Part shown: positions 2,500-11,605 of the stretch, piece after piece
Layout: every line of letters begins with the position of its first letter
How positions within the stretch are numbered: the first letter of the stretch is position 1
Origin: Enterobacteria phage vB_EcoM_IME540
DNA length: 64,000 nt
Reading direction: 5' to 3' (one strand)
Sequence record: MT150133.1
Notes under the pieces: generated by a model
The model's input: only the letters and a program-made list of their open reading frames with translations
The model's database searches: none
Told to the model about the DNA's origin: nothing
Program-made: the position numbers and the translations under genes

Positions 2500-3664
2500 C
2501 TAAATCCATCTCTTCCAAATCGTTTTCGATATCAGCGGCGCTTTGGGCATTACCACCTAATTTAACAGCAACGTTCTTAGAGACACGAGAGTTAATAAGG
2601 TCGTTCACTGCATCGTCAACTTCTTTAATAGAATTAATTGCACCGAGCTTATACTTATTCTCGATTGCTTCACGGAACGGGGCATGTTTAAACAGCGGTC
2701 CCCAGAACTCGACACAATCGGTAGCTTTAGCACGCCATGCTTTTTCTTCTTGAACCATTTCGCCTGTGGTTTCGTCAAGGAATGCACGATTATACCAGCC
2801 AGCTTTAGGTTTCACGACAAAGCCAATATCAGTAGCCATTTCAAGCAATCCACTGAATGGGTCGATACCACCTTCGAAGTTAACGGTGATAGGGAACGTT
2901 GATTTCTCTTTAACCGTACGAGATTTCTCAGCCTTCAGTGTGAAGTCATAACCAGTGAGCTCGGTACCATCTTTAACCTGACGTTTAGAGATAAAGAACA
3001 CGGTAGAAGCAGAGTACAGAATACCAGTACCACCACCCATAATCTCTTTAGGATACATTCCACCAATTTCCATAGCCGTGTGGTTGATTGCTACACAAGG
3101 GATATCTTTGATAGTCAGATAAGGTGTTACGATACGGAACAGAGATTTCAGTGACTTAGCACGGGTCATATCACCTACAACTTTCTCGTTCAAAGCATCT
3201 TCGGTTTCTTTCTTAGAAGCAGTGTTACCAATGGAGTCGATAAAGATAATAACCTTTTCGCCACGAGTAATTTCTTCTAACTGGTTGGTCATATCAACTT
3301 TAAGCTGTTCGACTGACTGGATTGGTGTATGAACCACACGTTCCAAATCAACACCCATCGAACGGAAATAAGATTCTGAAGCACCAAACTCAGAGTCATA
3401 GAACAAACAAATTGCGTCTGGATATTTCTTCATATATGCCGCAACCATGGTAAGTCCAAACAACGTTTTAAAGTGTTTAGATGGAGCAGCAAAGATTGTC
3501 AAACCTGATTGTAAGCCTGCATTCAACGCACCGCCTAATGCAATATTCAGCATAGGGATACGAGTAGGAACTTCGTCACGACCATTAAACAATTTAGATT
3601 TGGTCAGGTCGGCGGTCATTTTAGAAGTAGAAGCTTTAATCAAACGGGATTTTAAATCAGACAT
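2492..3664 (-). CDS. uvsX: UvsX recombinase (RecA-like)
   Basis: 390 aa; N-terminus MSDLKSRLIKASTSK and overall sequence match T4 UvsX. Confidence 0.95.
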   Translation of the reverse strand: MSDLKSRLIKASTSKMTADLTKSKLFNGRDEVPTRIPMLNIALGGALNAGLQSGLTIFAAPSKHFKTLFGLTMVAAYMKKYPDAICLFYDSEFGASESYFRSMGVDLERVVHTPIQSVEQLKVDMTNQLEEITRGEKVIIFIDSIGNTASKKETEDALNEKVVGDMTRAKSLKSLFRIVTPYLTIKDIPCVAINHTAMEIGGMYPKEIMGGGTGILYSASTVFFISKRQVKDGTELTGYDFTLKAEKSRTVKEKSTFPITVNFEGGIDPFSGLLEMATDIGFVVKPKAGWYNRAFLDETTGEMVQEEKAWRAKATDCVEFWGPLFKHAPFREAIENKYKLGAINSIKEVDDAVNDLINSRVSKNVAVKLGGNAQSAADIENDLEEMDLDD

Positions 3665-3741
3665 TATATTTTTCCATAGGCATCATTATATTTTACTCAC
3701 GTTTTAAGATAGGGTAATTATATCACTTCACATTTACAGCG

Positions 3742-4635
3742 TTAAAGGACCACGTCCTCATAACTTGGCATTTCGTGCTCAGAATGGATGTGGGCACCGA
3801 AATAAATGAATTCAGCCAGACCAGGATGGAATACTAAACTGGGATTCTCATGATAAATGATATGAGGTCTTGATTTCAGAATCTGATAATATTCAACCTT
3901 ACTCGGTTTGAATTTAATAATCTCTACATCAGGACGATGGTCTTCACGCTTAAATGAATCATTCGGATCGGTGATATAAAGGCGAGAACCTTCAGCCGCA
4001 GCTTGGTCTACAACTCTTTCGAATTGATAGCATTTATCTGAGATACGGAATGGATGGAAAATACCATCAATTTTAATAGGCGCTAGACCTTCAGAGTAAC
4101 GCTCAATTACTGCGGGATTAATTACCTTTTGGTCTACAAAAATCTTATCAGAGGACGCACCTCGTGACACCAGGACGTCTTTCTGACATTGATTCAAGAC
4201 TGTAGTATAAATCGAACGTTCAACTGAGGACACGTCGGTATCAATAAACTCGTCGATATAATAACGAGGAACTTCAGGGTCCATTGTAATGTTAAAGTTG
4301 AATTGTACAGTCTGAGTGCCATCATAACCTGTGATATCGGTTACCAATCCTGAGCAGTCATAGTATTCGATTAACGAATCAACAACGAACTCGTTTTCAG
4401 ACCAAAAATGTTTACGAGTTTCATAAGCATTTTCTTTATACCAAAGCGGTACAAAATTCAGTTCAGGAAATAATTCAATGCATTCTTTGATATCGCTCGA
4501 ATTTCTAGGATAAGCCAGATAATCACCTGGGCAAGCACGGTTTAAATGGAGTTGAAAATTACCGTCCTTAAGGACGGCATATTCACCTGTTTCGTAACTA
4601 CGCATACTGAAAATAGGAACGATAAACAAACTCAT
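3742..4635 (-). CDS. hypothetical protein (297 aa) at the T4 beta-gt position
   Basis: long ORF translationally coupled to gene 42 (ATGA overlap at 4632-4635); no resemblance to T4 beta-glucosyltransferase that I can recognise. Confidence 0.6.
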   Translation of the reverse strand: MSLFIVPIFSMRSYETGEYAVLKDGNFQLHLNRACPGDYLAYPRNSSDIKECIELFPELNFVPLWYKENAYETRKHFWSENEFVVDSLIEYYDCSGLVTDITGYDGTQTVQFNFNITMDPEVPRYYIDEFIDTDVSSVERSIYTTVLNQCQKDVLVSRGASSDKIFVDQKVINPAVIERYSEGLAPIKIDGIFHPFRISDKCYQFERVVDQAAAEGSRLYITDPNDSFKREDHRPDVEIIKFKPSKVEYYQILKSRPHIIYHENPSLVFHPGLAEFIYFGAHIHSEHEMPSYEDVVL

Positions 4636-5330
4636 TTCAGGAATCCTCGAACGTAGTCAAAATCACGTTCAAATACGTGTGCACTAACCATAGTATGGGA
4701 ATACGTACCCAGACCAACACCACACTGTTCAGCAATAAAGGCCATCAGTTTACCCTGCAGATAGAAATCCAGCTGCATAACAATAGCACAGTTCTGTGAA
4801 CGCATATGGGTATGTGCATAAAGACGTCCATCACGAATATAATATGTCACTGAATCAGTACATGGATATTCTAAGGATTCGTCAGAATCAAGGAGGGCTT
4901 GGTCTTGTTCTTGGAGAATTTGGAACACAACTCGTCTTGAGTTAGGCTTCTCTTTAAGCTCTTTAAGTAAGGCTGGGAGTTGGGCCACAATTCTAGGTCC
5001 ATAGAAAGTGTTGAAGTTTGCAGGCAATACGTCACTTTTCGGCTTATCAATGAACTTAGCAACATTAGGGTATTCCTTAAATGCTTCGGCGGCGTCAGTA
5101 CCACCAGAAATCATAAACTTCCAGAAAGATTCGGCATAATCATAGTTGATACGATTAATACGAGGGTCGGTGAATTTATAGGTGCTTGCATCCAGTACTT
5201 CTACCGAAGCAGAACCAATTTCATAACAACAGCCGATACGAGAATCAACTGCAAACTGTGGAGCTTCCAGGATTTCTTCGTTCATTTGCTTAAACGCGTT
5301 TTCAAAACTAACAGCGGTAATGTGTTTCAT
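4632..5330 (-). CDS. 42: dCMP hydroxymethylase (thymidylate-synthase fold)
   Basis: 232 aa; PCTDSVTYYIRD and RSQN motifs parallel T4 gp42 CTNTVQYLIRD / RSND; syntenic with T4 gene 42. Confidence 0.8.
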   Translation of the reverse strand: MKHITAVSFENAFKQMNEEILEAPQFAVDSRIGCCYEIGSASVEVLDASTYKFTDPRINRINYDYAESFWKFMISGGTDAAEAFKEYPNVAKFIDKPKSDVLPANFNTFYGPRIVAQLPALLKELKEKPNSRRVVFQILQEQDQALLDSDESLEYPCTDSVTYYIRDGRLYAHTHMRSQNCAIVMQLDFYLQGKLMAFIAEQCGVGLGTYSHTMVSAHVFERDFDYVRGFLK

Positions 5331-5863
5331 TTATTCACCTTATTTTCAATATATTCATTCAGACGTTTTAATTCTACCATATCGACGTTAAGCAAGTTAT
5401 TATGGCCGTCGTGATTTAAGATTTTAAACACGTTTTCAAAACATGTTTCATATTGCCGGATAGTTAGGTTGAACTCATCTTTGGTTAATTTAATAAGGTC
5501 ATCTTCAAAGTCTTTATCCAGTGGATTACGGGTTAAAATAACCTCAATAATATTGAATTCAGATTTAAACCCTTTCCAATCTTCCAGTTCTACATAAGGG
5601 TCCATTTCACCACGAAGGAATCCAGAGTAAACAATATTACTAGGATACCCACGGTCTAAGATGTAGACAAAATTAGGGTCTAAAAACTTATACAACGTCT
5701 CGACTAAAGCCTTGTCATTATCAGTCCCTAATGAAATGCATTTGCCATTAATCTTTTTAGGGAAATCAATAAGACGATATTTCTTATCAGATAAAAGTGA
5801 TTCAATTAAAGTAGACTTCCCGGAATTATCCGGGCCGTCGATAACAATGATTTTTGGTTTCAC
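5327..5863 (-). CDS. P-loop kinase, thymidylate-kinase-like
   Basis: Walker A IVIDGPDNSGKST and TMK-like DRGY motif (YILDRGYPSNIVYSG); 178 aa. Confidence 0.65.
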   Translation of the reverse strand: MKPKIIVIDGPDNSGKSTLIESLLSDKKYRLIDFPKKINGKCISLGTDNDKALVETLYKFLDPNFVYILDRGYPSNIVYSGFLRGEMDPYVELEDWKGFKSEFNIIEVILTRNPLDKDFEDDLIKLTKDEFNLTIRQYETCFENVFKILNHDGHNNLLNVDMVELKRLNEYIENKVNK

Positions 5864-6234
5864 GGATGATATGCCTTATAGGTTTCAAGAGTTCCTTCAC
5901 GAACCATTTCTTTAAAGTGGTCAGGACGGATTGCTCGGTCATCGATGATAAAAGTATAACTCGGCTTATGTGTAAGCAGATTGTGATATTTCAATCCAAT
6001 CTTTTCAAGGTTCTTAACTAATGCAGGAACTACTTCAACCAAGATTCGACCTGGGCCGCATGAAGTCATACCACGGGCAGTGAACAAGGTAATCTCGTAC
6101 CCTTCATCATAAAGCTTATTAATCACGGACACCATTTCGGTGTCCGGTTTAAAGTTTTCGTAATCACGGTCATCTTGCCAGTGAGTAATGGTATTATCGA
6201 TATCAAAACACAGATGCATTAAATTTTCTTCCAT
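5860..6234 (-). CDS. HAD-superfamily phosphatase (small, capless)
   Basis: all four HAD motifs: FDIDNT, LFTAR, HKPS, FIIDDR; alternative ATG at 6219 couples to upstream stop (TAATG). Confidence 0.65.
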   Translation of the reverse strand: MEENLMHLCFDIDNTITHWQDDRDYENFKPDTEMVSVINKLYDEGYEITLFTARGMTSCGPGRILVEVVPALVKNLEKIGLKYHNLLTHKPSYTFIIDDRAIRPDHFKEMVREGTLETYKAYHP

Positions 6235-7892
6235 TGTTTGTGGAGTTCGGTAGAACCTGTAGGTTTATATTTTACACCAGTTTCCTGGTCAAGCAAAACC
6301 CACTTATCAGGACAACGAGTGATAATTTGAGCCGTGATAGGGTCGCGAACTTCATCAACGAATTCACCTGTGATAAGCTTACGCTTACGAGGATGCCGCT
6401 TCAGCAGCACACTCAGTTGATATAGCCCATTGTAATAAGCGCCCAGAGCTTTCAGAGGGTTATTTTTAAAGTAACCTGCCAATGCCATCCAGATAACAGC
6501 AATCCAGAGCTTGTGCTTAAATGTACACATCGGAATATCATCTAAAGGCATAACCTTTTCAATATCAACGAATACACGAGTTCCGTTACGAGTTAAGCCA
6601 CCCCATAGAGGGTCAGAGTTAAATTTGTCATAACCATCGATAGAATAAAGCACCTTAGCTTCATCATAAATCGCAGGGCCTTTAGAACTATTACCAAAAT
6701 AACCACGTGGGTCGATGATTTTAATATTACCTTCGTCCGACAACATAATATTACTGTAGTGCGGGTCGCCATGAATAAGTTGGTACGGTTCTTTATGTTC
6801 AGACAGAATTTCTAAGGCGTGACGAAGAAGTTTTTCTGGGTCGCCTACCTTGAAGTCGTTAACATGGGTAATACCCTGTGGAGCAAAGCCTTCAATCAAT
6901 CCGGCAATAGAAGCATTACGAATAAGGACCTTGTCCAATACTTCTTTCTTAACATCAGAATACCATTGCTCATCGGATGGATTATCGATAGTTCCACCGA
7001 ATGAACGTAATGCACTAATGACCTTATAAACCATGAGGACTTTAGTTTCTTTAGACATAAACCGATAGGCGTCTGCCATGGTGCGACCAAAGATACGTTC
7101 CATTTTAATGAATTCACCTGGAGCAAAGTCTACAATGCTAGGAACGAATTCAGAATCAATAGAATTGTACCAATTGATTTCTTTAGATTGGATTTCTTTA
7201 CCTAATTCGTTTGTAGGTACTTTAATAGCTAGATTCTCAGTGAACTCTAATTTATTAAATTCACGGTTAATTTCAGAATCTTCATGGGCCTTAGCCAGTT
7301 TCAGTTTGTCACCAACATCAACTACAAAGTCTAACTTACGTTCAGTCAAATGGACCATTGAATCCAGGTTGTCAGCAAGGTCTTCACCATAATTAGAACG
7401 GTCGAAACCTGTCCAATTAGCCACCTGATACAAGCCAACTACGCCACCACCGGTACCAATTTCACGCAAGTACGGTTCTTCAAATGTAAAACGACAGTCA
7501 GTCCCATAGGTATAACAGTAGTCGTTATCCCACTCAACTTTATGACCTTCAGGAATAATATCACACCAGTTAAACAAGACATTGTGCCCAATGATATCTT
7601 CGGCAATGCAATCGATAGCATGAGCCGAACCATTGGCAACATCAACGTTACGAATAGTGAATTTAGGCTTATCACTATTAATCATGTTAATGGATTTAAT
7701 ATAGCCTTTAACGAGGTCGTTAAATTTGCTGTGAATAACCAGAATAATTTCATCTGATTGATTACTATACAAATCATACAAATGTTTTAATACAGTATGT
7801 TGTTTGTAGTTAACCAGTACCTTCGGGATTTCGTTGGTAATTGGATACAACCGTGAGCCAAGACCCGCGCCTAAAATAACAACCTTTTTCAT
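6219..7892 (-). CDS. bifunctional nucleotidyltransferase (N-terminal) / APH-ChoK-like kinase (C-terminal)
   Basis: N-terminus VVILGAGLGSRL (sugar-1-P/LicC-type NTase glycine loop); C-terminus LIHGDPHYSNIM...IIDPRGY (Brenner HGDxxxxN kinase motif); start trimmed to MKKVVILG with GAGGAA SD. Confidence 0.7.
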   Translation of the reverse strand: MKKVVILGAGLGSRLYPITNEIPKVLVNYKQHTVLKHLYDLYSNQSDEIILVIHSKFNDLVKGYIKSINMINSDKPKFTIRNVDVANGSAHAIDCIAEDIIGHNVLFNWCDIIPEGHKVEWDNDYCYTYGTDCRFTFEEPYLREIGTGGGVVGLYQVANWTGFDRSNYGEDLADNLDSMVHLTERKLDFVVDVGDKLKLAKAHEDSEINREFNKLEFTENLAIKVPTNELGKEIQSKEINWYNSIDSEFVPSIVDFAPGEFIKMERIFGRTMADAYRFMSKETKVLMVYKVISALRSFGGTIDNPSDEQWYSDVKKEVLDKVLIRNASIAGLIEGFAPQGITHVNDFKVGDPEKLLRHALEILSEHKEPYQLIHGDPHYSNIMLSDEGNIKIIDPRGYFGNSSKGPAIYDEAKVLYSIDGYDKFNSDPLWGGLTRNGTRVFVDIEKVMPLDDIPMCTFKHKLWIAVIWMALAGYFKNNPLKALGAYYNGLYQLSVLLKRHPRKRKLITGEFVDEVRDPITAQIITRCPDKWVLLDQETGVKYKPTGSTELHKQWKKI

Positions 7893-7952
7893 TATCTGTT
7901 CCTCAAGTGAATGTAGGTACATTATACACTATTTTTAATAAATTGGTATTGC

Positions 7953-8453
7953 TTAAATCTTATCTTTACCGATTTCAATACACTGTTCTATTGCCGCCGG
8001 TGCTTTGGTCTTGAGCTTATCGATTTGTTTCTTATAATCACGAGCTTTACCGAAGCTCTCGGTTTCGAGCATTTCGTAATAACGAGCCTCGTGGATGGAA
8101 ATCTGTAGATTGATATGGTTTACGCACATCGCATACAGTTTCTGCTTTTTGTACAAATCATCTTGACGCTTCATTTCTGCCTGGTGTTTGGCTAGTACCG
8201 CTTCACGCTTGGACTCTTGTTCACGTTGGAATTCGATTTCTTGTTGAGCATATTTTGCACAGTTATTACCGCATTGATTATTAGCTCGGGTGTACACAAG
8301 TCCAGAACCTGCACGGAATTTCATTTCGCCATCGAATTGTTTCTGTTCAGCTGCGATACGAGCTTTACCAACTTCATCGGCCGAAACTGTATCACCATAT
8401 TGGACCGCGCAACCTGATAGGAGCATACTCATTGCGATAATTAACTTTTTCAT
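7953..8453 (-). CDS. lipoprotein (signal peptide + lipobox LLSGC)
   Basis: MKKLIIAMSMLLSGC lipobox; charged coiled-coil-like mature part; adjacent to imm. Confidence 0.65.
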   Translation of the reverse strand: MKKLIIAMSMLLSGCAVQYGDTVSADEVGKARIAAEQKQFDGEMKFRAGSGLVYTRANNQCGNNCAKYAQQEIEFQREQESKREAVLAKHQAEMKRQDDLYKKQKLYAMCVNHINLQISIHEARYYEMLETESFGKARDYKKQIDKLKTKAPAAIEQCIEIGKDKI

Positions 8454-8460
8454 AATATCC

Positions 8461-8598
8461 TCAATTAAAACAGTTATACTTAATTTGTGCTATAAGAATA
8501 ATCCATCCAATGATGAGTGTCGGAATCATTGGGGGAATTGCCACTGCCCAATAAATGGTAAAGGCAGTCATTATAAGAAATAAAATAATTATTTTCAT
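8461..8598 (-). CDS. small hydrophobic membrane protein (45 aa, below ORF-track cutoff)
   Basis: ATGA overlap with imm stop at 8595-8598; MKIIILFLIMTAFTIYWAVAIPPMIPTLIIGWIILIAQ is almost entirely hydrophobic. Confidence 0.4.
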   Translation of the reverse strand: MKIIILFLIMTAFTIYWAVAIPPMIPTLIIGWIILIAQIKYNCFN

Positions 8599-8831
8599 TG
8601 CTTAACAATAATGATTTGTGCGTTTGATTTACGTTCAGCGACGATAGCCCAGATTAAAGCCACTACCCAACCAATCATCGTCCAGCCTAACAGGAGATTA
8701 AGGAAGAAAATTCCGACATTACTACGAGTGCCTCGCAGAAGAGCCAGAATCCATGGTAAAAAGTAACCGATGAACATAATAACCAGAGAACCGAATCCTA
8801 AAACACCAGCACTAACGATTAAAGCTTCCAT
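8595..8831 (-). CDS. imm: superinfection immunity protein Imm-like (two TM helices)
   Basis: 78 aa membrane protein with GWVVALIWA-type motif; syntenic with T4 imm beside gene 43. Confidence 0.6.
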   Translation of the reverse strand: MEALIVSAGVLGFGSLVIMFIGYFLPWILALLRGTRSNVGIFFLNLLLGWTMIGWVVALIWAIVAERKSNAQIIIVKQ

Positions 8832-8849
8832 TGTAATTTCCTCATGTAG

Positions 8850-8892
8850 TTGATAGGAAGGATACTACCACGTTCCTTGTGGTATGTAAACA
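8850..8892 (-). promoter_or_regulatory. early promoter-like element upstream of imm (degenerate copy)
   Basis: rc GTTTAC-N17-TAGTAT with TG two bases upstream of -10. Confidence 0.4.
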
Positions 8893-8893
8893 C

Positions 8894-11605
8894 TTAAAAG
8901 TCGAACATATCAAATAATGTTGCTTTTTTCTCGTAGTCGATTTTAGCAGACTCAGTAAAACCGGTCAGAGGTTTGATAAAGGTCTTTTGGAACAGTACGT
9001 TGTAGTCCATCCAACGGAGGACTTGGTCACGAATCTGAACCGGAAGTTCAATACCTGACGGCCATGCCATACAAGCTTCACCAAACGGGTTGCCTTCTTT
9101 AAGTGGCAGTACATATACCTTTTCACCATCAACGATACGAGGCATAGTCAAATCACCTGCAGAAGCACGCATGTAAGCTAAGCAACCTTTGATGTGGTAT
9201 GGACATTTAGAACCCGGGAATCCACCTTCATTATATTTCTCGATGTTGTTAGCACTGGATACTGCTGCAATGCTTACATAATCGAGTTCGTTAAATTCCT
9301 TATTAAACTGTTTGAAATATTCTTGCAAAGATGCCTCGCCTTCCTGAAGCATACGACGGATACATTCCTTCAGAGCTTTCTGAACTGCTTTAGGTGTACT
9401 TGATTTCTGAGTTTCGAGACCCATGATTTTCAAGTGTGGTTCAGCATAACGAGTACCTTCCATGTCCCAAACGTTAAGTGCATAACGTTTCTTGCCTGTC
9501 CAGAATCCACCAAGGCCTTTAGAACCAAGTGGAGGACCTGCGATAGCTTCTCGGTCCATGAACATCAAGTGTTGTTTGTTGTTCATGTATTCGCACATCT
9601 CACGGAAGCCTGCATCAATAGCTGGTTCCATACGTTCACGTGCAAATTTATCTAAGAAGTCTACCCAGTGGTTAGTATCACGGAATTTATCTTCGCCTAC
9701 TTTATTGATGATTGCATCTGCCTTAACATAAATGGAGTCAGTATCACCGTAGAGCACGAACTTCTGGTTTTCAGTCTTACACACGCTATTCAGATATTCG
9801 TTAACCTTACGTTCAATCCATTGGAGGGCCATTTGACCAAACAATGTGATTGCAGTTGCGTTCCTGAGGTCATAGTAACGGAACCATACGTTACCAAGTG
9901 CACCATAAAGGGAGTTGATAAGCAACTTACGGTTAATCTGAGCAGTGTTACCTGCAACTTCAGTGAGCTCGGCTTTCTTCAACATTTCTCTTAAAGAAGG
10001 CGCTGACAGTGCTTTAATCTGGGCTTTTATTTCGTCAGAGAAGTCAAAACGATAATCGATATCCAGTGGACTATCAACTGAGAGATTAGGATTTTCCAAT
10101 GCTTCTTTAATTAACTCACCATTACGTTGAGCTGCAAGCATGTAACCTTTATGTTCTTTACGCTGCAAGAATACCTTGGTGATTTCTGTCGGAATCACAC
10201 CTTCACGGTCTTTATAGTACATCATGCCGTTAGGAGAGCAACTGTAGGTGTCGCTAGGACGCTGAGCAGTTCCGGCAATATATTCATGTATCGGTGCGTT
10301 AGCGAATGTCCCTGCGATGGTCTCTGGGCTTATATTCACTTGTCGAATGATACTCGGATACAGAGATGTAAGGTCGAAACTCATTACATATTTGTAAGCG
10401 TTAGGAATCGGTTCCTTAACGAAAGCACCAGGATAAGGTTGGACCACGTGCGAACGAGCTTGTGGAATTACCTTGCCTTGTTCTTTAAGGCTATTAAAGA
10501 TAATAGCGTCCCAAGTCTTAATTGGGCTGAACACCGACTGAATCTGCATCTTGGCATAATAACCCATGTCCAAACTCAGAAGAATGAACTGACGCTTCAT
10601 ATCAATCTGCACTACACGATATACGTCGATAATGTTATAGGAAATATATCGTTGGTGGTTCGTCTCACGTAACTTGGAGATTGGGCCATCATATTTCAAC
10701 TTACCTACTTTCAATTCATATTCAGAAACATAATCCAGAGAATAAGAAGGCTGGTTGGTGAAGCTGAATTTTTTATAGAGGTCGATATAATCCAGAACAG
10801 AGATACCGAACAATGTAATGATTTCACGAGCACCGTACATGTTCTCAATAACTTTAACACGAGTTTTACGATGTGGGCTTAATCGCTTAGCAGTGTTCTC
10901 ACCGAACAGATTTTTCAGACGGTTATAAACGTACGGTACGTCAAACGACTCAACGTTCCATCCAGTCAAAATCACAGGAGTTTTCTGTTGCCAGAAATTC
11001 AAGTACTCAAGCATCATTTCTTCTTCAGAATTAAACGGAAGATAAACGATTTTGTCAATGATTTCCTGTGGAACTTCGTCACCACCTTCGTCTTGGAGTT
11101 TCTCAGCGATTTTAATCGACCACTCTTCAACAGTACCATAAGGCGAAACTAAAAGGTCGAATACATAGAATTTATCGTCAATCGAGTCGTAGTGGGTAAT
11201 GGCATCGATAGGATGTTTAGCCTGAGCTGGTTCAGGGAATCCATCAGGAGATGTTACCTCGATGTCGAAGTTAGCAATACGAATCTTAGAAGAATCATAT
11301 TTGATTTCTTTACGATAGGTATCAGACAAATAGGCTAATTTATAGTCGTCCATACCCAGGGCTTCGAGACCCATATCATCCATACGTTTCATCCATTGGG
11401 ATGCATCACGCATAGAATCGAATTCTTTCTTAACACAACCCTTACCATAGATATCAATGTATTTTACGGCTTGCTCTGGATTAGCATGCATAAACATTGT
11501 AGGCTTGTATGGAACTTCACGACTACGTTCGTTACCATTTTTATCGATGTAACGTTCGAGAATATTATCACCGATTTGTTCGACTGTCAAATAGAATTCT
11601 TGCAT
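8894..11605 (-). CDS. 43: DNA polymerase gp43 (family B)
   Basis: collinear with T4 gp43; ORF-track TTG start trimmed to MQEFYLTVEQIGDN (T4 starts MKEFYISIE) with AAGGA SD. Confidence 0.95.
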   Translation of the reverse strand: MQEFYLTVEQIGDNILERYIDKNGNERSREVPYKPTMFMHANPEQAVKYIDIYGKGCVKKEFDSMRDASQWMKRMDDMGLEALGMDDYKLAYLSDTYRKEIKYDSSKIRIANFDIEVTSPDGFPEPAQAKHPIDAITHYDSIDDKFYVFDLLVSPYGTVEEWSIKIAEKLQDEGGDEVPQEIIDKIVYLPFNSEEEMMLEYLNFWQQKTPVILTGWNVESFDVPYVYNRLKNLFGENTAKRLSPHRKTRVKVIENMYGAREIITLFGISVLDYIDLYKKFSFTNQPSYSLDYVSEYELKVGKLKYDGPISKLRETNHQRYISYNIIDVYRVVQIDMKRQFILLSLDMGYYAKMQIQSVFSPIKTWDAIIFNSLKEQGKVIPQARSHVVQPYPGAFVKEPIPNAYKYVMSFDLTSLYPSIIRQVNISPETIAGTFANAPIHEYIAGTAQRPSDTYSCSPNGMMYYKDREGVIPTEITKVFLQRKEHKGYMLAAQRNGELIKEALENPNLSVDSPLDIDYRFDFSDEIKAQIKALSAPSLREMLKKAELTEVAGNTAQINRKLLINSLYGALGNVWFRYYDLRNATAITLFGQMALQWIERKVNEYLNSVCKTENQKFVLYGDTDSIYVKADAIINKVGEDKFRDTNHWVDFLDKFARERMEPAIDAGFREMCEYMNNKQHLMFMDREAIAGPPLGSKGLGGFWTGKKRYALNVWDMEGTRYAEPHLKIMGLETQKSSTPKAVQKALKECIRRMLQEGEASLQEYFKQFNKEFNELDYVSIAAVSSANNIEKYNEGGFPGSKCPYHIKGCLAYMRASAGDLTMPRIVDGEKVYVLPLKEGNPFGEACMAWPSGIELPVQIRDQVLRWMDYNVLFQKTFIKPLTGFTESAKIDYEKKATLFDMFDF

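Follow-up and report, generated by a model that had tools for sequence, protein, structure and literature searches.

An additional thymidylate-kinase-like protein accompanies the predicted 5-hydroxy-dCMP synthase in the DNA-modification module of Enterobacteria phage vB_EcoM_IME540

Organization of the locus and the kinase gene

A 64,000-nucleotide stretch of the Enterobacteria phage vB_EcoM_IME540 sequence (MT150133.1), referred to throughout as the window, contains five successive overlapping genes on the minus strand, coding in order for a nucleotidyltransferase (NTP-transferase) with an aminoglycoside phosphotransferase (APH)-like kinase domain, a HAD-family phosphatase, a small P-loop kinase, a ThyA homologue, and a candidate glycosyltransferase (GT1), with uvsX as the next gene (Table 1). 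The P-loop kinase, hereafter the kinase, is the subject of this analysis. An earlier note on the same DNA had described it as a thymidylate kinase (TMK)-like enzyme in a modification module, additional to the gene 1 deoxynucleoside monophosphate (dNMP) kinase, and had proposed that it acts on either a modified nucleotide or a sugar. The open reading frame (ORF) begins with MKPKIIVIDGPDNSGKST and has LDRGY further in, and both the Walker A and DRGY motifs of the earlier note are read directly from the sequence. The start codon of the kinase gene and the stop codon of the HAD gene upstream share the letters GTGA, and its own stop codon shares ATGA with the ATG of the ThyA homologue downstream. 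This packing, the sole basis for the proposal, suggests that the five genes form a single transcription unit; a scan of positions 3400-9000 for promoter and terminator consensus sequences gave 17 and 3 hits, respectively, which is not above chance (17.8 and 3.6 in shuffled sequence).

Table 1. Features of the window that bear on the kinase, and other features of note
Feature	Coordinates	Strand	Basis and remarks
TMK-fold P-loop kinase	5327..5863	minus	178 aa, GTG start; orthologue, by sequence, of RB69p045 / DLP3_078 'nucleotide kinase'
Walker A / P-loop IVIDGPDNSGKST	5810..5848	minus	aa 6-18, read from sequence
DRGY motif	5645..5656	minus	aa 70-73; counterpart of TMK DR(Y/H/F); followed by conserved S75-N76-x-V78-Y79
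Family-specific DFEDDLIK segment	5489..5512	minus	aa 118-125; opposite the arginine-rich LID of TMKs, by profile alignment alone
ThyA homologue, predicted 5-hydroxy-dCMP synthase	4632..5330	minus	Pfam Thymidylat_synt 5.9e-14; N169/D177 by alignment, E. coli numbering
GT1, candidate first glycosyltransferase	3742..4635	minus	297 aa; phrog_3891 E 4.6e-158; glycosyltransferase role inferred from Lee et al. (PMC13326640)
HAD-family phosphatase (AfhF / RB69p051-like)	5860..6234	minus	phrog_1238 E 6.3e-41; NCBIfam capsule biosynthesis phosphatase 2.3e-14; role from PMC13326640
Bifunctional NTP-transferase + APH-like kinase (AfhE / RB69p052:53-like), predicted UDP-arabinofuranose maker	6219..7922	minus	Pfam NTP_transferase 2.5e-08, APH 9.1e-06; role from PMC13326640
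Gene 1-type dNMP kinase	54478..55239	minus	Pfam DNMK PF21448, E 5.6e-90, 301 bits
Acb1 anti-CBASS (cyclic-oligonucleotide-based antiphage signaling system) phosphodiesterase homologue	53785-54240	minus	Pfam Acb1 8.9e-59; directly downstream of the gene 1 kinase
166-aa ORF	7953-8453	minus	Between the AfhE-like gene and gene 43; lipoprotein-like N-terminal signal MKKLIIAMSMLLSGC; no significant family match

The kinase ORF is a real, conserved gene and not a chance ORF. The protein matches phrog_761 (E 2.4e-39), and its AlphaFold model has a mean predicted local distance difference test (pLDDT) score of 93.6. The window comes from a T4-like phage and over the kinase region is ∼99% identical to Escherichia phages QL01, WG01, and Bp7 (Dhakavirus-type group), and comparison with other Dhakavirus-like genomes gives a ratio of nonsynonymous to synonymous substitution rates (dN/dS) of 0.04-0.11 at an unsaturated dS of 0.33-0.46, with similar values for the neighboring genes; purifying selection retains the kinase in all T4-like genomes with 5-hydroxycytosine (5hoC) that were examined. 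A homology search with the single sequence yields 9 matches, and a family profile is required to recover 95 homologues (165-230 aa), nearly all of them in T4-like phages. The family is small, as an exhaustive search of 1.84 billion representative proteins gives 437 profile matches at E<=1e-3 and 46 at E<=1e-10, and its members are phage encoded in each source open to inspection.

By sequence, the kinase is an orthologue of RB69p045 (37% identity, E 9e-35 in BLASTP), and DLP3 (PQ034586) and RB69-like genomes are among its tblastn matches. RB69 and the Acinetobacter phage DLP3 have arabinosylated 5-hydroxycytosine in place of cytosine (Lee et al., NAR 2026, PMC13326640), and Dhakaviruses carry the RB69-type cluster too (PMC13326640). 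The ThyA homologue of this cluster is a flavin-dependent 5-hydroxy-dCMP (5hodCMP) synthase, for which D169N is proposed to be diagnostic (PMC13326640). Table 1 of that paper lists RB69p045 (NP_861735.1), DLP3_078, and RL38J1_214 as 'nucleotide kinase', with structural matches to TMK, YorR, and deoxycytidine kinase, as also seen for the kinase of the window, and the three proteins are neither discussed nor assayed in its text (PMC13326640). The kinase gene is thus not new, its RB69 and DLP3 orthologues having already been catalogued (PMC13326640). RB69p045 and DLP3_078 resemble the kinase in lying in a cluster with an N169/D177 synthase, GT1, a HAD phosphatase, and the bifunctional NTP-transferase/kinase; the order differs in that the kinase follows GT1 in RB69, DLP3, and Rhizobium phage RL38J1, whereas in the Dhakavirus of the window it is upstream of the synthase (HAD-kinase-synthase-GT1). 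What is added here is a family-wide link to dCMP-type ThyA homologues, together with fusions at the nucleotide level.

Fold and motifs of the kinase

The fold of the kinase is thymidylate-kinase-like, but it is not a canonical TMK. The fold ranking places six TMKs first (scores of 12.4-11.4), followed by PPK2 (11.3), YorR of Bacillus prophage SPbeta (10.9), M. tuberculosis TMK (10.4), deoxyguanosine kinase (9.5), a putative gluconate kinase (8.3), and T4 gene 1 kinase (7.8); shikimate kinase is not among the top 60 fold matches. A Foldseek search of the PDB and viral models agrees with this TMK-first ranking, and the family profile compared with solved structures matches YorR (2.6e-13) and, over its full length, vaccinia TMK (3.9e-10). 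Gluconate- and shikimate-type sugar kinases are thus the closest match neither by fold nor by profile. The other enzyme to be set apart is the gene 1 dNMP kinase, which the earlier note had placed elsewhere in the window, where it is indeed present and, like the kinase, on the minus strand; the kinase matches neither the PF21448 (DNMK) profile nor the 1dek fold by which T4 gene 1 kinase is recognized, and it is an extra, TMK-like enzyme.

YorR (PDB 2axp/3kb2), by sequence the nearest relative with a solved structure, is likewise a small TMK-like protein, and it differs from the kinase in having no DFEDDLIK segment. To our knowledge YorR has no assigned function, and we do not know of modified cytosine in SPbeta. 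The title of the 3kb2 entry reads 'in complex with phosphorylated GDP', a hint that the nucleotides bound by small TMK-like phage proteins may not be limited to dTMP.

Residues of the kinase were mapped onto TMKs by profile alignment and not on model coordinates. In an alignment of 53 diverse family sequences (A2), D12, K16, D70, R71, and Y79 are invariant, and K36 (of an FPK motif), S75, N76, R84, R112, F119, D121, D122, and I124 are nearly so. The P-loop (DGPD12NSGK16ST) and D70-R71 together present the acidic P-loop residue and DR motif by which TMKs are identified: D12 aligns with the acidic P-loop residue of yeast and vaccinia TMKs, and the DRGY region aligns with DRY..S..AY of the yeast, vaccinia, and Staphylococcus aureus enzymes, although the third position of the motif is G, F, or C in the kinase family and Y, H, or F in TMKs. 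In TMKs the P-loop Asp, the DR motif, and the equivalents of S..VY make the contacts to the deoxynucleotide at its 3'-OH, phosphates, and 2' position. The alignment of the conserved D12, D70-R71, and Y79 with these contact residues suggests a dNMP acceptor.

Other parts of the protein depart from canonical TMKs (PF02223, TIGR00041; vaccinia 2v54, S. aureus 4dwj, and yeast 1tmk), than which it is ∼20-40 residues shorter. Canonical TMKs have P-loop or LID arginines, whereas in the kinase N13 falls at the P-loop position of the catalytic Arg of class I TMKs, and the LID region, by alignment, is shortened and reads TRNPLDKDFEDDLIK, with the conserved DFEDDLIK at the LID. An acidic residue of the kinase aligns with the thymine- and phosphate-binding Arg of TMKs, in a low-confidence part of the alignment that is also the least confident part of the model. 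Profile scores are below the curated cutoffs: Pfam PF02223 (Thymidylate_kin) reaches 15.1 bits against a cutoff of 27 and covers only residues 8-24, and TIGR00041 reaches 19 bits against 83.25.

Distribution of the kinase with the N169 synthase

The kinase differs from canonical TMKs also in its distribution, which follows a cytosine-modifying enzyme and not thymidylate metabolism. Phage database records number 343 for the kinase and 342 for the N169-type synthase, and their breakdown by genus name is almost identical (these being totals and genus-name counts, not a record-by-record match); T4-type UvsX is present in 1756 records, and the ∼1400 T4-like records that lack an N169 synthase also lack the kinase. 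The kinase profile was used to fetch 80 IMG/VR loci, comprising 33 of the core family and 47 distant relatives. An N169/D177 ThyA homologue lies within 2 kb and on the same strand in 31 of the 33 core loci, and the remaining two are 4-kb contigs that end inside the neighboring gene. The usual core gene order is synthase-GT1-kinase, with kinase-synthase-GT1 in Dhakavirus- and Marfavirus-type genomes, and GT1 homologues adjoin the ThyA homologue in all core loci, those of Mosigvirus (the RB69 genus) included. The syntenic stretch of T4 (43-imm.1-imm-42-bgt-segA-uvsX) has no annotated kinase and has the pair 42-bgt at the site.

Some modules contain the kinase without the arabinose genes. Two GC-rich myovirus contigs (GC 0.56; L022:7756-10534 and L030:7503-10552), the first of which also has T4 gp15-like and sheath tail genes, have, set among their tail genes, a four-gene module that consists of a Flavodoxin_2-like gene (possibly for a flavin reductase), an N169/D177 synthase, GT1, and the kinase. 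AfhE and HAD homologues are both missing within 10 kb of the module, which is consistent with a hydroxylase that depends on flavin and with a sugar that is not an arabinose made by the phage. In phage RL38J1, whose sugars are hexoses, genes 216-215-214 stand in the order ThyA-GT-kinase; RL38J1_214 is a weak relative of the kinase family (87% probability), and the phage has a separate annotated dNMP kinase gene with weak likeness to gene 1 (E 4e-4).

Among the 47 distant relatives, 13 overlap or abut a ThyA homologue, and D177 is present in all 13 of these homologues. D177 is a cytosine-specifying residue that is also found in T4 dCMP hydroxymethylase. Several relatives are fused to other domains: P0147 joins a kinase to a ThyA homologue, others are fused to a uracil-DNA glycosylase (UDG)-like domain, and the locus L039:8338-11617 (IMGVR_UViG_3300028840_000981) codes for an NTP pyrophosphatase of the MazG/PRA-PH type with a distant TMK-like kinase as its fusion partner, an S-adenosylmethionine (SAM)-dependent (O-)methyltransferase, an N169/D177 ThyA homologue, and a dCMP deaminase. 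This gene set suggests that the L039 phage produces 5-methoxycytosine, of which the literature surveyed has no description. Pseudoxanthomonas phage PW916 has the order NTP pyrophosphatase, kinase fusion, thymidylate synthase homologue, and dCMP deaminase. Its fusion is one of a group of ∼315-360 aa proteins with a kinase domain and a C-terminal HhH-GPD domain by Pfam (P0120-P0139; loci L044, L046, L050, L053, L059, and L086:2307-3287, the last in PW916, where it is unannotated). By eye, the HhH-GPD domain resembles the glycosylase domain of MBD4 (WKFF..LN, PLGL, GLGKYAADSY, EPxDKEL), and a ThyA homologue of the D169/D177 (dCMP) type is the next gene downstream of the fusion gene, whose product may be a glycosylase acting on deaminated modified cytosine in repair or maintenance.

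Probable role and alternative explanations

The simplest reading of these patterns is that the kinase family is the nucleotide-kinase partner of cytosine-modifying ThyA homologues, and the pairing of synthase and kinase in unrelated phages suggests that the kinase arrives with the synthase as a mobile cassette. Because the kinase gene travels with the 5-hydroxy-dCMP synthase gene, a modified nucleotide and not a sugar is the likely substrate, and the kinase most likely acts on the base half, not the sugar half, of the cytosine-hypermodification module. The position within such a module that the earlier note had assigned to it is borne out by the five overlapping genes; of the two substrates proposed there, the modified nucleotide agrees with the neighboring genes, the joint occurrence of kinase and 5hodCMP synthase, and the fusions, and the sugar fares badly, the kinase of the sugar route being the APH-like domain and the TMK-like kinase persisting where arabinose genes are lacking. 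The reality of the gene, its fold, its orthology to RB69p045, the operon-like packing, the co-occurrence, and the fusions are shown here; what the enzyme phosphorylates, and in which direction it works, we infer. On a slight balance of probability, the kinase is a 5-substituted-dCMP (5hodCMP) kinase that is partly redundant with gene 1. In this pathway the phage dCTPase would supply dCMP, the adjacent N169/D177 ThyA homologue would hydroxylate it to 5-hydroxy-dCMP, the kinase would use ATP to convert the 5-substituted dCMP to the diphosphate, and host nucleoside diphosphate kinase would provide the triphosphate for the phage polymerase. Its step would be analogous to the phosphorylation of 5-substituted dCMP by T4 gene 1 dNMP kinase (PF21448, 1dek) and would overlap that of the gene 1 kinase in T4-like phages; here the kinase probably contributes flux or specificity and no unique step.

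Several observations weigh against this assignment. The main one is that gp159, the gene 1 orthologue of RB69, already makes 5hodCDP from 5hodCMP in vitro, and that expression of the synthase and gene 1 kinase is enough to place 5-hydroxydeoxycytidine (5hodC) in E. coli DNA (PMC13326640), making a plain 5hodCMP kinase redundant here. The kinase scores under the Pfam and NCBIfam cutoffs for dTMP kinase and (d)CMP kinase alike, and by alignment it has none of the class I P-loop Arg, the class II LID Arg, or the Arg that binds thymine O4 and phosphate. It diverges faster than its partner (36-45% identity between genera, compared with 66-86% for the synthase), and for about half of the distant relatives no ThyA homologue can be detected among the neighboring genes. 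No enzyme assay of a family member was found in the literature surveyed, which did not extend to He et al. 2026 or Mahler et al. 2025. Redundancy and fast divergence, set against retained purifying selection, keep open a substrate beyond the reach of gene 1.

One such substrate would be a glycosylated nucleotide. GT1 would arabinosylate 5hodCMP, the kinase and not gene 1 would phosphorylate arabinosyl-5hodCMP, and the polymerase would insert the glycosylated dCTP, so that glycosylation would be pre-replicative. We regard this as unlikely, although it is the strongest of the alternatives. In most genera (ThyA-GT1-kinase) the kinase gene comes immediately after GT1 and overlaps it, and in RL38J1 too it comes after the transferase; a role of this kind would explain why phages with hydroxymethylcytosine have gene 1 alone and every 5hoC phage has a second kinase, and the L039 methyltransferase stands between kinase and synthase in an otherwise nucleotide-level module. 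Distant relatives, however, pair with ThyA homologues with no transferase in between, and glucosylation in T4, which is post-replicative, offers a precedent on the other side. The published experiments fall on both sides: individual glycosyltransferases are inactive on DNA containing 5hoC, and the authors leave undecided whether the mononucleotide or DNA receives the first arabinose (PMC13326640), whereas later arabinoses are added to DNA in vitro and, as noted above, 5hodC enters E. coli DNA with the synthase and gene 1 kinase alone (PMC13326640).

An ordinary thymidylate (dTMP/dUMP) kinase that raises dTTP supply is what database labels imply, with phrog_761 named 'thymidylate kinase' and the same product name in many RefSeq records, and TMKs are the closest folds and profile matches. 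This explanation is nonetheless improbable. The kinase is far under the curated cutoffs, with the P-loop alone matched, and the thymine- and phosphate-binding Arg and the LID arginines are, by alignment, not conserved; these failed thresholds and missing arginines, together with the strict tie to a cytosine-modifying enzyme, disfavor a plain dTMP kinase. The ∼1400 T4-like records in which the gene is absent would need dTTP equally, and T4 gene 1 kinase already phosphorylates dTMP.

Activity on DNA, as a 5hoC base kinase like the 5-hydroxymethyldeoxyuridine (5-hmdU) DNA kinases (5-HMUDK), or a role as a regulatory NTPase of the modification complex, is a little less probable again. Some distant relatives are fused to HhH-GPD or UDG-like domains, an arrangement reminiscent of the glycosylase-like transferases paired with 5-HMUDK (PMC8989533), an NMP kinase does not typically lack its LID arginines, and 5-HMUDKs such as phage M6 gp54 are, like the kinase, small phage P-loop kinases in base-hypermodification clusters. 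Their targets, though, are hydroxymethyl groups in DNA, which they make into leaving groups, and a glycosyltransferase that uses a UDP-sugar does not depend on phosphorylation of its acceptor. Lee et al. assign the bridging oxygen to 5hoC in DNA, and 18O2 labeling marks the 5hoC hydroxyl (PMC13326640); the fusions with the synthase and with the NTP pyrophosphatase indicate the nucleotide pool. An hhalign comparison of A2 with M6 gp54, a proven 5-hmdU DNA kinase and the only one of the 5-HMUDKs (others being ViI gp67 and PhiW-14 gp37) that was compared, covers only 23 P-loop columns, which disfavors a base kinase of the 5-HMUDK type, and that identity for the kinase family was rejected.

A role in the UDP-arabinose route as a kinase of sugars or sugar phosphates, for which gluconate and shikimate kinases are the model, is the least probable of the four and very unlikely, because the fold ranking favors TMKs, the AfhE and AfhF homologues cover the whole published route (PMC13326640), the TMK deoxynucleotide-contact residues are conserved, and the kinase lies apart from the sugar genes and after GT1 in most genera and persists without nearby arabinose genes in L022, L030, and the hexose-using RL38J1.

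Glycosylation of 5-hydroxycytosine joined the known phage DNA hypermodifications recently, in papers of 2025-2026, and its base and sugar pathways are largely assigned; within the survey defined above the kinase is the sole conserved gene of the cluster without an assigned or tested role. If it is a dedicated 5-substituted-dCMP kinase, synthase and kinase, with or without a transferase, would constitute a minimal portable cassette for 5hoC-DNA, which would aid sequence-based prediction of phages with modified cytosine, engineering of modified DNA, and enzymatic production of modified dNDPs and dNTPs; if it handles a glycosylated nucleotide, the order of steps now accepted for the glycosylation of phage DNA would change.

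The AfhE-like and AfhF-like genes of the module are predicted to serve the published sugar pathway, in which arabinose-5-P is converted via arabinose-1,5-P2 and arabinose-1-P to UDP-arabinofuranose by homologues of AfhE (a bifunctional kinase and uridylyltransferase) and AfhF (a phosphatase) (PMC13326640); the APH-like C-terminal domain of the AfhE type is given there as the sugar kinase of the route, in a passage citing He et al. 2026. In the window the AfhE-like protein is 567 aa, with the APH-like domain also C-terminal, and it has no match in a PDB sequence search. GT1 has no Pfam match and no PDB sequence match, and the ThyA homologue matches solved structures 9iqu/9iqc (E 1.7e-124). Homologues of RB69p055 (arabinose-5-phosphate isomerase) and RB69p050 (peptidase-like) are absent from the window (1-64000), and the phage may rely on host KdsD/GutQ for arabinose-5-P, or the isomerase gene may lie beyond the window. 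Orthologues of the HAD phosphatase are named 'phosphoheptose isomerase' in RefSeq and PHROGs, an apparent propagated annotation error because the profile matches are to HAD phosphatases. Beyond the module, the Acb1 homologue is the immediate neighbor of the gene 1 kinase, and T4 has imm and imm.1 where the window has the 166-aa ORF.

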